In this document: one piece after another, positions 1-4,318 of the stretch | Position numbering within the stretch: position 1 is the stretch's first letter | Layout: the number at the start of each line of letters is the position of its first letter | From: a virus | Lineage: Duplodnaviria; Heunggongvirae; Uroviricota; Caudoviricetes | Strand: one strand, 5' to 3' | IMG/VR virus record: IMGVR_UViG_2851955134_000007 | DNA length: 16,015 nucleotides | Translations under genes and position numbers: made by a program | The notes under the pieces: model-generated | The model's database searches: none | What the model was told of the DNA's origin: nothing | The model's input: the letters and a program-made list of their open reading frames with translations, nothing else

Positions 1-1164
1 TTACGCCTTCTTTATATCCTCCATAATTCCAGAGTGGGACATATTTGGGACATTATCACCAAAAATGTCGTCTATTTTCCTCGCATGCTCTGTCAAATGA
101 TTAGGCGCAAGGTGAGCATACCTACGAACCATTTCTATGGACTCCCATCCGCCCATTTCCTGAAGCACTGATAATGGGACGCCTGACTGAATCAGCCAGC
201 TTGCCCAGGTGTGTCTGAGGTCATGGAAACGGAAATCTTCAATTCCTGCACGACGACAAGCTGATAGCCATGATGTCTTGCTGTCGATGCGCATCTTCCT
301 GACCGCAGGCGTTGATGTTCCATCTGCTCGCTTAGCCGCCTTGGTATGTACAAACACCCATTTGTGATGCTTGCCTATTTGATCACGCAACACTTTACAG
401 GCGGTATCGTTCAGCGCCACACCAATGGCGCGGTTTGATTTGCTCTCTTCTGGATTCACCCAGGCAACTCGTCGCTGCATGTCGATTTGTTGCCATTCCA
501 GATTTATGATGTTCGACTTTCTCAGACCAGTTGCCAGCGCAAACTTGACGACAGATTTCAGTGGTTCGGGGCACTCATCAATAAGGCGTTTTGCTTCCTC
601 CTTTTCCAGCCATCTGACTCGCTTGTTTCTGACCGCTGGTATCTTGATGACAGGCGCTTTTTCCAGCCACTTCCAGTCGCGTTCTGCAGCACGGAGAATG
701 GCCTTTATCATGGCAAGATGCTTTGCCTTTGTCTGAGTTGATACTGGCTTTGGTTCATAAACAGGCGGTTCTTTACCTTTCCTGATGGCGGCCTGAACTT
801 TCTGTTTCCATATTTCTTTCGTCTTTCTGTTATGCATTCTGCTTACAGCAGAGTAAATCTTTGCCTCCGAGATATCTTTAAGCCTTATACCCTCAAAATG
901 TTCAAGCCAGAACTCAATCCGGCTTTTATCTGAATCGAGAGATTTTTTATCAGCTTTTTCCTCAAGCCATCTTAGGCAGGCCTCTTCAAAAGTGACATCA
1001 GGTAAATCCCCTAGCTTTTCTACTCGCCAGAGTTCTGCTTTTCGCTTGTCGTGCAACTCCTGAGCTTGCCGCTTGTCCTTTGTGCCAAGAGATTCCTTAA
1101 TTCGTTTCCCGCCCGGGAGCGAATACGAGGCATACCATATTTTATTTCTGCGGAAGAGTGACAT
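1..1164 (-). CDS. int: Tyrosine-type phage integrase, 387 aa, lambdoid (phage 21 / DLP12 IntD-like)
   Basis: Complete ORF with GAGG Shine-Dalgarno upstream of the ATG at 1164. C-terminal catalytic motifs [10 protein letters not shown] and VRRYAHL (catalytic Tyr). N-terminal arm-binding region resembles lambdoid integrases as recalled. Stop codon sits at window positions 1-3. Confidence 0.9.
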
Positions 1165-1391: not shown

Positions 1392-1641
1392 GGTTACCTC
1401 TGCTTTTTGAACGCATGTCACGTAACTTCTTAATGTGTTCTGCCGTTTCGATCTCTTCTGCTATCCGATCTGCATCAGCTTTATTCACAGGTTCAAAGTC
1501 ATGATTAAAGCGGAACATGCTGGCGATACATGTTCTGCCTTTTCGGATGTAGTGAACTTTGTTGTGGGTAGAACGCAGGATTTTGCAGGGAGTGCCGTGG
1601 TGGTCGACGTACCAGGTGTTAGGCAAAATGATTCTGAACAT
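1363..1641 (-). CDS. Hypothetical prophage early-left protein, 92 aa
   Basis: ORF with good RBS (GAGGTG about 6 nt upstream of the ATG at 1641); overlaps the xis start by 29 nt. No family recognised. Confidence 0.5.
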   Translation of the reverse strand: MFRIILPNTWYVDHHGTPCKILRSTHNKVHYIRKGRTCIASMFRFNHDFEPVNKADADRIAEEIETAEHIKKLRDMRSKSRGNHGIIQPHTR

Positions 1642-1688
1642 TTTTACACCTCAGTTGGACGATGTTGAAATTTGCTGCTTTGAGGCCA

Positions 1689-1907
1689 TCACAATCCCCA
1701 TTGTTTGTTCTTAAGTTCGATCTCCTCCTGGCAGCTTGCACAAGTCCGACAACCCTGAACGGCCAGGCGTCTTCGTTCATCTATGGGATCGCCACACTCA
1801 CAACAATGAGTGGCAGATATAACCTGGTGGTTCAGACGACGCATTTTTATTGCTGTATTGCGCTGTAATTCTTCGATTTCTGATGCTGAATCAATGATGT
1901 CTGCCAT
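1689..1907 (-). CDS. Small zinc-ribbon protein, TraR/DksA-like C4 type, 72 aa
   Basis: Two CxxC pairs (C-C-E-C and C-R-T-C, about 14 residues apart) in a 72 aa ORF, as in phage TraR/DksA-family proteins. Confidence 0.6.
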   Translation of the reverse strand: MADIIDSASEIEELQRNTAIKMRRLNHQVISATHCCECGDPIDERRRLAVQGCRTCASCQEEIELKNKQWGL

Positions 1908-1957
1908 CTTCCATTAATCCCTGAATTGTTGGTTAATACGCTTGAGGGTGAATGCGA

Positions 1958-1985
1958 ATAATAAAAAAGGAGCCTGTAGCTCCCT
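1958..1985 (-). terminator. Intrinsic terminator candidate for leftward transcription
   Basis: Minus-strand hairpin GGAGC-loop-GCTCC (1969-1983) followed by a T run (plus-strand A run 1963-1968). Lies between the 71 aa ORF stop and the zinc-ribbon gene start. Confidence 0.45.
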
Positions 1986-2005
1986 GATGATTTTGCTTTT
2001 CATGT

Positions 2006-2221
2006 TCATCGCTCCTTAAAGACGCCGTTTAACATGCCGATCGCCAGGCTTAAATGAGTCGGTGTGAATCCCATCAGCGTTACCGTTTCGCGGTGCTTCT
2101 TCAGTACGCTACGGCAAATGTCATCGACGTTTTTATCCGGAAACTGCTGTCTGGCTTTTTTGATTTCAGAATTAGCCTGACGGGCTATGCTGCGAAGGGC
2201 GTTTTCCTGCTGAGGTGTCAT
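2006..2221 (-). CDS. Hypothetical protein, 71 aa (MTPQQENALRSIARQ...)
   Basis: Start chosen at the ATG at 2221, which overlaps the stop of an upstream 27 aa ORF (ATGA). The 104 aa extension in the ORF track has no RBS support. Confidence 0.45.
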   Translation of the reverse strand: MTPQQENALRSIARQANSEIKKARQQFPDKNVDDICRSVLKKHRETVTLMGFTPTHLSLAIGMLNGVFKER

Positions 2222-2301
2222 TGAACAAGTCCCATGTCGGCAAGCATAAGCACACAGAATATGAAGCCCGCTGCCAGAAAAATGCATTCCGTGGTTGTCA
2301 T
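2218..2301 (-). CDS. Putative small hydrophobic peptide, 27 aa (MTTTECIFLAAGFIFCVLMLADMGLVQ)
   Basis: Below the ORF-track size cutoff; found by reading the strand. GGAGG about 4 nt upstream of the ATG. Hydrophobic core long enough for one transmembrane helix. Stop overlaps the start of the 71 aa ORF. Confidence 0.3.
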   Translation of the reverse strand: MTTTECIFLAAGFIFCVLMLADMGLVQ

Positions 2302-2369
2302 GCAGCCTCCCGACGGGCAAGAATCCTTGAGCCGAACGCCATCAACTCTCCACGATCAACGGTCGTAAA

Positions 2370-2993
2370 GTGGCAGTGTGTACGGGGGTACAGCAGGTAG
2401 CGCAGATCATCAACGGTGTGTTCAGCCAGTTACTGGCAACTTTCCCGGCGAGCCTGGCTAACCGTGACCAGAACGAAGTGAACGAAATCCGTCGCCAGTG
2501 GGTTCTGGCTTTTCGGGAAAACGGGATCACCACGATGGAACAGGTTAACGCAGGAATGCGCGTAGCCCGTCGGCAGAATCGACCATTTCTGCCATCACCC
2601 GGGCAGTTTGTTGCATGGTGCCGGGAAGAAGCATCCGTTATCGCCGGACTGCCAAACGTCAGCGAGCTGGTTGATATGGTTTACGAGTATTGCCGGAAGC
2701 GAGGCCTGTATCCGGATGCGGAGTCTTATCCGTGGAAATCAAACGCGCACTACTGGCTGGTTACCAACCTGTATCAGAACATGCGGGCCAATGCGCTTAC
2801 TGATGCGGAATTACGCCGTAAGGCCGCAGATGAGCTTGTCCATATGACTGCGAGAATTAACCGTGGTGAGGCGATCCCTGAACCAGTAAAACAACTTCCT
2901 GTCATGGGCGGTAGACCTCTAAATCGTGCACAGGCTCTGGCGAAGATCTCAGAAATCAAAGCTAAGTTCGGACTAAAAGGAGCAAGTGTATGA
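2370..2993 (+). pseudogene. P: Replication protein P, C-terminal fragment (about 200 aa); N-terminus deleted
   Basis: From about 2385 (VQQVAQIINGVFSQLLATFPASLANRDQNEVNEIRRQWVLAFRENG...) the translation matches the C-terminal part of lambda P as recalled. Upstream sequence is unrelated and the only in-frame start is a GTG without RBS. Confidence 0.85.
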
Positions 2994-3280
2994 CGGGCAA
3001 AGAGGCAATTATTCATTACCTGGGGACGCATAATAGCTTCTGTGCGCCGGACGTTGCCGCGCTAACAGGCGCAACAGTAACCAGCATAAATCAGGCCGCG
3101 GCTAAAATGGCACGGGCAGGTCTTCTGGTTATCGAAGGTAAGGTCTGGCGAACGGTGTATTACCGGTTTGCTACTAGGGAAGAACGGGAAGGAAAGATGA
3201 GCACGAACCTGATTTTTAAGGAGTGTCGCCAGAGTGCCGCGATGAAACGGGTATTGGCGGTATATGGAGTTAAAAGATGA
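2990..3280 (+). CDS. ren: Ren protein, 96 aa
   Basis: MTGKEAIIHYLGTHNSFCAPDVAALTGATVTS... matches lambda Ren as recalled. ATG overlaps the P stop (ATGA). Confidence 0.85.
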   Translation: MTGKEAIIHYLGTHNSFCAPDVAALTGATVTSINQAAAKMARAGLLVIEGKVWRTVYYRFATREEREGKMSTNLIFKECRQSAAMKRVLAVYGVKR

Positions 3281-3305
3281 CCATCTACATTACTGAGCTA
3301 ATAAC

Positions 3306-3337
3306 AGGCCTGCTGGTAATCGCAGGCCTTTTTATTT
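3306..3337 (+). terminator. Rho-independent terminator, tR2-like
   Basis: Stem AGGCCTGC (3306-3313) / GCAGGCCT (3322-3329) with 8-nt loop, followed by TTTTTATTT. Same position (between ren and ninB) as lambda tR2. Confidence 0.7.
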
Positions 3338-3353
3338 GGGGGAGAGGGAAGTC

Positions 3354-3794
3354 ATGAAAAAACTAACCTTTGAAATTCGATCTCCAGCACATCAGCAAAA
3401 CGCTATTCACGCAGTACAGCAAATCCTTCCAGACCCAACCAAACCAATCGTAGTAACCATTCAGGAACGCAACCGCAGCTTAGACCAAAACAGGAAGCTA
3501 TGGGCCTGCTTAGGTGACGTCTCTCGTCAGGTTGAATGGCATGGTCGCTGGCTGGATGCAGAAAGCTGGAAGTGTGTGTTTACCGCAGCATTAAAGCAGC
3601 AGGATGTTGTTCCTAACCTTGCCGGGAATGGCTTTGTGGTAATAGGCCAGTCAACCAGCAGGATGCGTGTAGGCGAATTTGCGGAGCTATTAGAGCTTAT
3701 ACAGGCATTCGGTACAGAGCGTGGCGTTAAGTGGTCAGACGAAGCGAGACTGGCTCTGGAGTGGAAAGCGAGATGGGGAGATCGGGCTGCATGA
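3354..3794 (+). CDS. ninB: NinB (recombination mediator, Orf family), 146 aa
   Basis: MKKLTFEIRSPAHQQNAIHAVQQILPDPTKPIVVTIQERNRSLDQNRKLW... recognised as lambda NinB. GGGAGAGGGAAG RBS upstream. Confidence 0.9.
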   Translation: MKKLTFEIRSPAHQQNAIHAVQQILPDPTKPIVVTIQERNRSLDQNRKLWACLGDVSRQVEWHGRWLDAESWKCVFTAALKQQDVVPNLAGNGFVVIGQSTSRMRVGEFAELLELIQAFGTERGVKWSDEARLALEWKARWGDRAA

Positions 3795-4318
3795 CTATCA
3801 AATCAAATACGCCAGCACACGACAAGGACTGCTGGCAAACGCCGCTTTGGCTTTTTGATGCACTGGATATTGAGTTTGGATTCTGGCTGGATTCGGCAGC
3901 GAGCGACAAAAATGCTCTGTGTGCTCACTGGCTAACTGAGGCCGACGACGCGCTCAATTCTGAGTGGGTAAGCCACGGTGCAATCTGGAATAACCCACCG
4001 TACAGCAATATCAGGCCGTGGGTGGAAAAAGCCGCTGAGCAGTGCATACAACAGCGACAGACGGTAGTTATGCTTGTGCCAGAGGATATGTCAGTCGGAT
4101 GGTTCAGCAAGGCTCTGGAGAGTGTCGACGAAGTTCGCATTATCACTGATGGACGGATTAATTTTATCGAACCATCGACAGGGTTGGAGAAGAAGGGAAA
4201 CAGCAAAGGCTCCATGCTGCTGATTTGGCGACCGTTCATCAGTCCTCGACGGATGTTTACTACCGTATCCAAAGCGGCATTGATGGCGATCGGGCAGGGC
4301 GTCAGGAGGGCGGCATGA
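3791..4318 (+). CDS. Orphan DNA N6-adenine methyltransferase (phage Dam-like), about 175 aa
   Basis: [13 protein letters not shown] motif and the catalytic NPPY tetrapeptide (AIWNNPPYS). ATG overlaps the ninB stop (ATGA). No restriction endonuclease gene adjacent. Confidence 0.8.

Follow-up and report, generated by a model that had tools for sequence, protein, structure and literature searches.

The window analysed here, the whole 16,015-nucleotide stretch of IMG/VR record IMGVR_UViG_2851955134_000007, carries on its minus strand an array of genes in the order integrase (1..1164), DUF4222 protein, TraR-type protein, 31-codon open reading frame (ORF), 71-aa ORF, 27-codon ORF and the 3' fragment of a methyltransferase gene. 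The TraR/DksA-type zinc-finger protein (1689..1907, minus strand; PF01258, E=1.2e-8; PHROG 54) is a homologue of lambda Orf73, the function of which has been described (PMC9239242), and the 71-aa protein (2006..2221, minus strand) is a member of the Orf61 family. Positions 1900-2301 share 98.5% identity with lambda 30606-31008 and 95-99% with a further 178 phage records, and positions 1600-2390 are a 100% match to the prophage that occupies the DLP12 site in E. coli B and C strains. Judging from gene order and these matches, the locus belongs to a lambdoid prophage, in which it forms the end of the exo-xis (early-left) block nearest int. Its assignment to a prophage early-left region, proposed earlier from the sequence alone, is borne out by the position next to the integrase gene and beside the TraR/Orf73 homologue, and by the near identity to the lambda block. 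In lambda and Stx phages this block (orf60a, orf63, orf61, orf73, ea22) modulates lysogenisation, induction, the lysis-lysogeny choice and host replication (PMC6213356, PMC8614690, PMC9239242). The window shares with it Orf61 and the homologue of the next gene, Orf73/TraR, but has a methyltransferase gene in place of orf63 and has lost pL. The genes described for the block do not include the 27-codon ORF, which falls within the stretch annotated as the N-terminus of orf61 but is read in a different frame.

The methyltransferase remnant upstream of the small ORF amounts to 89-95 nt of an N6-adenine methyltransferase gene (2298..2392, minus strand; ...ARREAA*, with the TGA at 2300-2298). The same DNA is annotated in BL21 as a partial methyltransferase, and the gene is intact in phage PhiR30_1, where the arrangement reads gam-bet-exo-orf60a-methyltransferase-[gap]-orf61-TraR-DUF4222-int. 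At about position 2391 the fragment is joined head-to-head to the gene of an N-terminally truncated replication protein P (2391..2993, plus strand; PF06992, E=5.7e-62), and homology with BL21 ends near 2390. Because of this junction, pL and all upstream early-left genes are missing in the window; no minus-strand promoter-like site was found in 1600-3400. Given the loss of pL, expression of the small-ORF module in this window is doubtful, and the module is probably silent. The nin region encodes another N6-adenine methyltransferase, this one full-length and in the opposite orientation (3731-4318, plus strand), whose C-terminus (...RRAA) is similar. At the same prophage site BL21 shows a different junction, involving ren; inverted methyltransferase paralogues may have driven these rearrangements. 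Strain FT130 carries an IS3 element in gene P (L003, 82-1243).

The 27-codon ORF occupies, with its stop codon, positions 2218..2301 of the minus strand, from an ATG at 2301 to a TGA at 2220-2218, and is an unannotated candidate gene for a single-pass hydrophobic micropeptide, MTTTECIFLAAGFIFCVLMLADMGLVQ. The minus-strand letters across the locus read cgtcGGGAGGctgcATGACAACC...GTTCAATGACACCT. The ATG is preceded, at a spacing of 4 nt (CTGC), by the Shine-Dalgarno (SD) sequence GGAGG (2310-2306, minus strand), and GGAGGCNGCATGAC is conserved. The predicted duplex with the anti-SD has an energy of -10.3 kcal/mol. In lambda and most Stx phages, in which orf63 is the upstream gene, the SD of the small ORF is weak (-5.6 kcal/mol); the near-ideal ribosome-binding site (RBS) that the sequence-only reading had described is therefore a property of the methyltransferase context and not of the orf63 context. 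That reading was otherwise correct in every part of its description of the 27 codons, the GGAGG and the TGA/ATG overlap. The latter consists of a shared ATGA (2221-2218) between the stop codon of the small ORF and the start codon (2221) of the 71-aa ORF, in keeping with the proposed coupling of the two. A second shared ATGA (2301-2298), which had escaped notice, joins the small-ORF ATG to the TGA of the methyltransferase fragment. Lambda, BL21 and FT130 have both overlaps as well; the small ORF is located at complement(30925..31008) in lambda and at complement(536125..536208) in BL21(DE3) (NC_012971.2).

Conservation of the pair in related prophages had been suggested as a check, and it was found on a large scale: the small ORF is present in 3143 of 5426 complete E. 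coli genomes (58%), at 4260 places (blastn), and in 175 phage records, 138 of them with an identical peptide (tblastn). None of the eight annotated records that we inspected annotates it. The peptide string was not found in searchable full texts, nor in the supplements of the Enterobacteriaceae microproteome study or the Sakai small-gene study. A review of lambda ribosome profiling names a 7-aa and a 31-aa product as extra ORFs in the block, and no 27-aa one, which counts against the small ORF (PMC8614690). The similarity between lambda and the window begins exactly at the small-ORF ATG despite the different upstream genes. These are of two kinds, orf63 (lambda, FT130) or the methyltransferase gene (window, BL21), and the TGA of both overlaps the small-ORF ATG. 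The many low-identity matches returned by the first protein search, apparent distant homologues, proved to be frameshifted or IS-disrupted copies or junction chimeras. In some prophages an IS66 element sits inside the small ORF and is tolerated (L236, 1994-2010); the insertion creates a 100-aa "protein" (P0004, 125 member sequences).

The evidence for coding comes from the pattern of substitutions. We collected 314 regions from IMG/VR, metagenomes and genomes, anchored outside the ORF, and counted distinct mutations, of which this family, 95-100% identical, provides 22. In the frame of the small ORF they divide into 11 synonymous and 11 non-synonymous, where about 25% would be expected to be synonymous (P=0.011); leaving out singletons the ratio is 10:7 (P=0.003), and with the first 213 regions and a varied transition bias it is 10:9 (P=0.006-0.016). 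The two other frames, with ratios of 4:18 and 7:15, have no synonymous bias, and the 71-aa gene, as a positive control, gives 16:21 (P=0.012). All five variants above 10% frequency in the small ORF (136, 53, 49, 48 and 43 copies) are silent. Each non-synonymous variant, by comparison, occurs in at most 10 of the 314 copies (Mann-Whitney against the synonymous counts, P=0.006). The same peptide is encoded by 276 copies; 307 of the 314 are intact, none of those 307 being frameshifted. By these counts the amino-acid sequence of the small ORF is under purifying selection, about as strong as that on the neighbouring accepted gene. The synonymous bias in this frame rules out the suggestion, made when the ORF was first noticed, that the arrangement may equally be chance. 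Overall, we consider it likely, though still some way from secure, that the small ORF is a genuine, conserved, very likely coding and so far unannotated gene of the lambdoid exo-xis module.

An explanation of the ORF at the level of RNA can be set aside, since no significant fold, terminator or RNA family accounts for it: folding of the region gave a z-score of +0.55, which is not significant, no Rfam match was found at the small ORF, and no terminator-like hairpin (a G+C hairpin with a T-run) occurs within 2218-2301. A hydrophobic pseudo-ORF derived from a terminator was rejected for the same lack of a terminator-like site and the same z-score. Inspection of the sequence also ruled out a programmed frameshift fusing the small ORF to the 71-aa ORF, as there is no canonical slippery heptamer.

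The predicted peptide has a hydrophobic core of 16-21 residues, with a Kyte-Doolittle mean of 2.3-2.4 over 17-21 residues and a Hessa sum of about 0; for the 19-residue core CIFLAAGFIFCVLMLADMGLV the values are 2.4 and -0.1. Such a core is consistent with the idea, put forward at the outset, that the peptide could cross a membrane once. In hydrophobicity the core ranks in the top 0.5% when set against open-frame 27-mers of the window, and in the top 0.2% when set against composition-matched shuffles. The peptide lacks basic residues and has a net charge of about -2; the lack of basic residues is unusual among small membrane proteins. E. coli has several small single-pass inner-membrane proteins of 50 aa or less, for example AcrZ, MgtS, KdpF and CydX. 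The peptide resembles these in size and in having one hydrophobic stretch of membrane-spanning length, but it has no sequence similarity to them, has no flanking basic residues, and is phage-borne and embedded in an operon. No family match was found in Pfam, PHROGs or NCBIfam, a match to MtrF (E=0.034) being dismissed as chance transmembrane-helix similarity, and tblastn gave no similarity beyond E. coli lambdoid phages.

The identity of the 71-aa partner bears directly on how the small ORF is to be read. PGAP annotates the protein as hypothetical (WP_000188870.1); it matches positions 23-93 of PHROG 303 (E=4.7e-36), is 100% identical to proteins of many Stx phages (tblastn) and is encoded upstream of the TraR/Orf73 gene. 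Orf61 has been published as a protein of 61 aa in lambda and of 93 aa in Phi24B and 933W (PMC6213356, PMC8614690). The 71-aa frame is open upstream to 2320, which explains the versions of 93-104 aa in databases. Accordingly, one could suppose that the small ORF is a chance overlap and that the real gene is an N-terminally extended Orf61 (93 aa from a start at 2287, 61 aa in lambda), given the open frame, the GenBank records that annotate the extension (933W, Phi24B and others) and the inclusion of the extension in PHROG 303. Several observations make this highly improbable. Substitutions in the frame of the extension number 4 synonymous to 18 non-synonymous among the 314 copies, and the 93-aa ATG has no SD ahead of it (-2.6 kcal/mol predicted). 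The homologues found in phages of Klebsiella, Enterobacter and Vibrio (29-47% identity) measure about 66-78 aa, lack the extension and mostly align from residue 1 of the 71-aa form, as do most of the short matches in an exhaustive HMMER search. An E. coli allele that starts 7 nt after a different upstream gene (P0025, 344 member sequences) likewise has its own GAGG and no extension. Moreover, PGAP calls the 71-aa form, and AlphaFold models the extension of the 93-aa form poorly (pLDDT 48-54, compared with 76-92 over most of the remaining chain and 55 at the last residues); disagreement over residues 1-23 has also been reported (PMC8614690). The 71-aa form is modelled as a three-helix bundle with a mean pLDDT of 89. 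We therefore conclude, from the alignment of homologues, the P0025 allele, the substitutions in the extension frame and the poor pLDDT, that the true Orf61 is the 71-aa protein, and that the published 93-aa N-terminus is unsupported.

The lambda annotation can be understood in the same terms. In laboratory lambda, orf61 contains a run of seven A, where the copies in the window, BL21 and FT130 have six (lambda imm21 record, L002 1560-1570; about 30.9 kb in lambda). The extra A shifts the frame, so the annotated lambda orf61 is a truncated remnant; at 30839..31024 it encloses the small ORF (30925..31008). By this comparison the annotated gene is in part an out-of-frame overlap with the small ORF and in part truncated Orf61. 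Phages whose orf61 is intact include 434 and PhiR30_1. Many NCBI records call the 71-aa family "cell division protein ZapA". This name looks spurious: the Pfam ZapA match scores 16.1 bits, below the cut-off of 23.8, over 33 residues, and structure searches with the 71-aa protein gave no match to ZapA.

Food for comparison is provided by phages in which orf61 is preceded by its own signal. Three such phages are KpnBHU6 and RothD of Klebsiella and BHUENT3 of Enterobacter. Their upstream gene, identifiable as an N6-adenine methyltransferase in RothD and BHUENT3, ends ...GGAGGCNGC-ATGA (the C-terminus in the Enterobacter phage being ...LLARREAA), and the Orf61 homologue (MTP...) begins directly at this ATG, with no small ORF in between. 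The directly served orf61 of these three phages has an SD of -9.5 to -10.3 kcal/mol, and a junction of the form GGAGG-N4-ATGA is common to their orf61 starts and to the small ORF of the window. In the window, 80 nt bounded by the repeat ATGACA...ATGACA separate this old junction from the body of orf61. Because the same GGAGG-N4-ATGA opens orf61 directly in the Klebsiella and Enterobacter phages, the 80-nt segment seems to have captured the orf61 start. The small ORF is absent from the Vibrio homologue and from the P0025 allele; its distribution is limited to the lambdoid phages of E. coli, and the orf61 family can do without it.

The simplest account of its birth is the following. A segment of 80 nt with ATGACA on either side would have been inserted just past the orf61 start codon in the lambdoid lineage of E. 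coli. No donor turned up in the window or among related phages, and inspection of the segment detected no terminal inverted repeats. The old RBS and ATG would now open a new frame of 27 codons closed by a TGA, and ribosomes finishing the small ORF would reinitiate at the overlapping, duplicated ATG of orf61, restoring translation of Orf61. Translation of the small ORF would thereby deliver ribosomes to orf61. In an intact phage, an N-antiterminated pL transcript would carry the upstream gene, the micropeptide, Orf61, the 31-codon ORF and then Orf73. The ribosome exit tunnel is longer than 27 residues, and the peptide would enter the inner membrane after its release from the ribosome. The SD at the 71-aa start is weak, -3.9 kcal/mol in contrast to the -9.5 to -10.3 kcal/mol of a directly served start; since only this weak SD remains, orf61 probably depends on coupling to the small ORF. 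With its ATGA overlaps with both neighbours and the weak SD that follows it, the small ORF is a candidate translationally coupled bridge cistron. It shares the four-base overlaps at both ends and the weak downstream SD with known ATGA termination-reinitiation operons, but differs from ATGA-coupled genes in that the bridging cistron is only 27 codons long and apparently arose when an insertion took over the original RBS and start codon of the downstream gene.

These same features could mean that the ORF is a relay and nothing else, its frame kept open just to pass ribosomes to orf61 while a functionless peptide is degraded. The overlaps at both ends and the weak SD of orf61 speak for a relay, as does the absence of the small ORF wherever orf61 has its own SD. 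Additionally, the window contains a second ORF of like bridge design, located between ren and ninB, 26 codons long (3277-3357, plus strand), identical to that of lambda and encoding MTIYITELITGLLVIAGLFIWGRGKS. As with the 27-codon ORF, its product is hydrophobic, its ATG overlaps the stop of the gene before it (ren) and its TGA overlaps the ATG of the gene after it (ninB). Unlike the 27-codon ORF, it contains a terminator-like hairpin (3306-3329) and a T-run, at the position of lambda tR2, and this element may by itself explain the Leu/Phe-rich sequence. In 119 IMG/VR copies, whose downstream contexts differ, conservation extends over the first 22-23 residues; synonymous and non-synonymous substitutions number 10 each (P=0.04), a ratio confounded by the hairpin and by a mosaic junction. 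What speaks against a mere relay in the case of the 27-codon ORF is that any open frame would suffice for the task, whereas the copies have fewer amino-acid changes than expected, all of them rare, and the hydrophobicity of the peptide far exceeds what its composition predicts. We therefore hold the pure relay to be rather unlikely, and prefer a small ORF that would both deliver ribosomes to orf61 and encode a selected peptide.

On the other side of orf61, the 31-codon ORF (1914..2009, minus strand; 29 codons from the second ATG) has a start that overlaps the stop of the 71-aa ORF and a terminator-like hairpin at 1985-1967, matching the terminator t1 that has been predicted between orf61 and orf73 (PMC4195576). 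This ORF is probably the 31-aa "orf2313" seen by ribosome profiling (PMC8614690). Unlike the 27-codon ORF it reveals no clear coding constraint: of its substitutions 7 are synonymous and 11 non-synonymous (P=0.12), and there are non-synonymous variants that are common.

A toxic role is another way to account for a small hydrophobic peptide in the pL operon. The pair had initially been offered as a Kil/DicB-like toxin, division inhibitor or host-takeover module, and the peptide, alone or with the 71-aa protein, might indeed act as a membrane toxin or division inhibitor (of the Kil/DicB kind or of type I) in host takeover. [quoted passage not shown] The toxin proposal nevertheless fared poorly, and we now regard it as improbable. 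The peptide has no homology to Lambda_Kil or DicB in Pfam, PHROG or NCBIfam, no similarity to any toxin family, and none by tblastn outside its lineage; the kil gene lies elsewhere in related loci. Kil and DicB are also small phage products, but they are not hydrophobic membrane peptides. The likeness to type I toxins (Hok, Ldr, TisB, ShoB, DinQ) lies in a small, hydrophobic and prophage-encoded product. The small ORF lacks their defining features, an antisense RNA and a stand-alone locus, since it forms part of an operon and overlaps both neighbours; it also has no promoter of its own, no homology, and a product that is neither amphipathic nor basic. No antisense promoter covers it and no known RNA family was matched; the one plus-strand promoter-like site (2295-2324) points away. 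The 71-aa partner, a generic three-helix bundle, had no informative structural neighbour in structure searches. The pairing is not obligatory either, as the small ORF does not accompany the orf61 homologues of Klebsiella, Enterobacter and Vibrio phages, nor one allele in E. coli itself, and 58% of complete E. coli genomes carry the ORF, apparently harmlessly.

What the peptide might do can be framed by its location. Lambda is the reference temperate phage, and the effects of its exo-xis region on the lysis-lysogeny decision and on host replication are poorly explained. Since the annotated orf61 encloses the small ORF, orf61 deletion or frameshift mutants would hit the peptide gene too, and in lambda PaPa orf61 is frameshifted. 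A bolder reading is that the peptide is a young gene, born when the 80-nt segment captured the RBS and start of orf61, and that it may also be the true effector behind the lambda "orf61" phenotypes; from the membrane it would then influence either the choice between lysis and lysogeny or host replication and the cell cycle. This is a speculative proposal, which we think has a slim chance of being right. Should the small ORF be a true gene, several consequences would follow even so. The published phenotypes of orf61 deletions and frameshifts would be ambiguous between two genes, and one gene would be missing from the maps of lambda and the Stx-converting phages, and from those of prophages carried by over half of the complete E. 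coli genomes. Furthermore, orf61 would be mis-annotated, the true protein having 71 aa and the lambda copy being a frameshifted remnant, and the locus would offer a clear, datable case of a gene that arose by taking over a ribosome-binding site and a start codon already in place. What is new here is a candidate hidden micropeptide gene in a phage operon and a correction to the annotation of orf61.

Finally, the scan of the genome collection returned mostly lambda contamination in unrelated assemblies. Lambda-identical contigs occur in assemblies labelled Shewanella, Bradyrhizobium, Pseudomonas, Kitasatospora, Paenibacillus and others (L098-L111); several of them are about 48 kb long and of low coverage, and are therefore probably contamination from a sequencing control. 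The record of "Campylobacter phage CJLB-4" (MW057783.1) carries lambda-type sequence across the region, 98.5% identical to the window, as lambda is.
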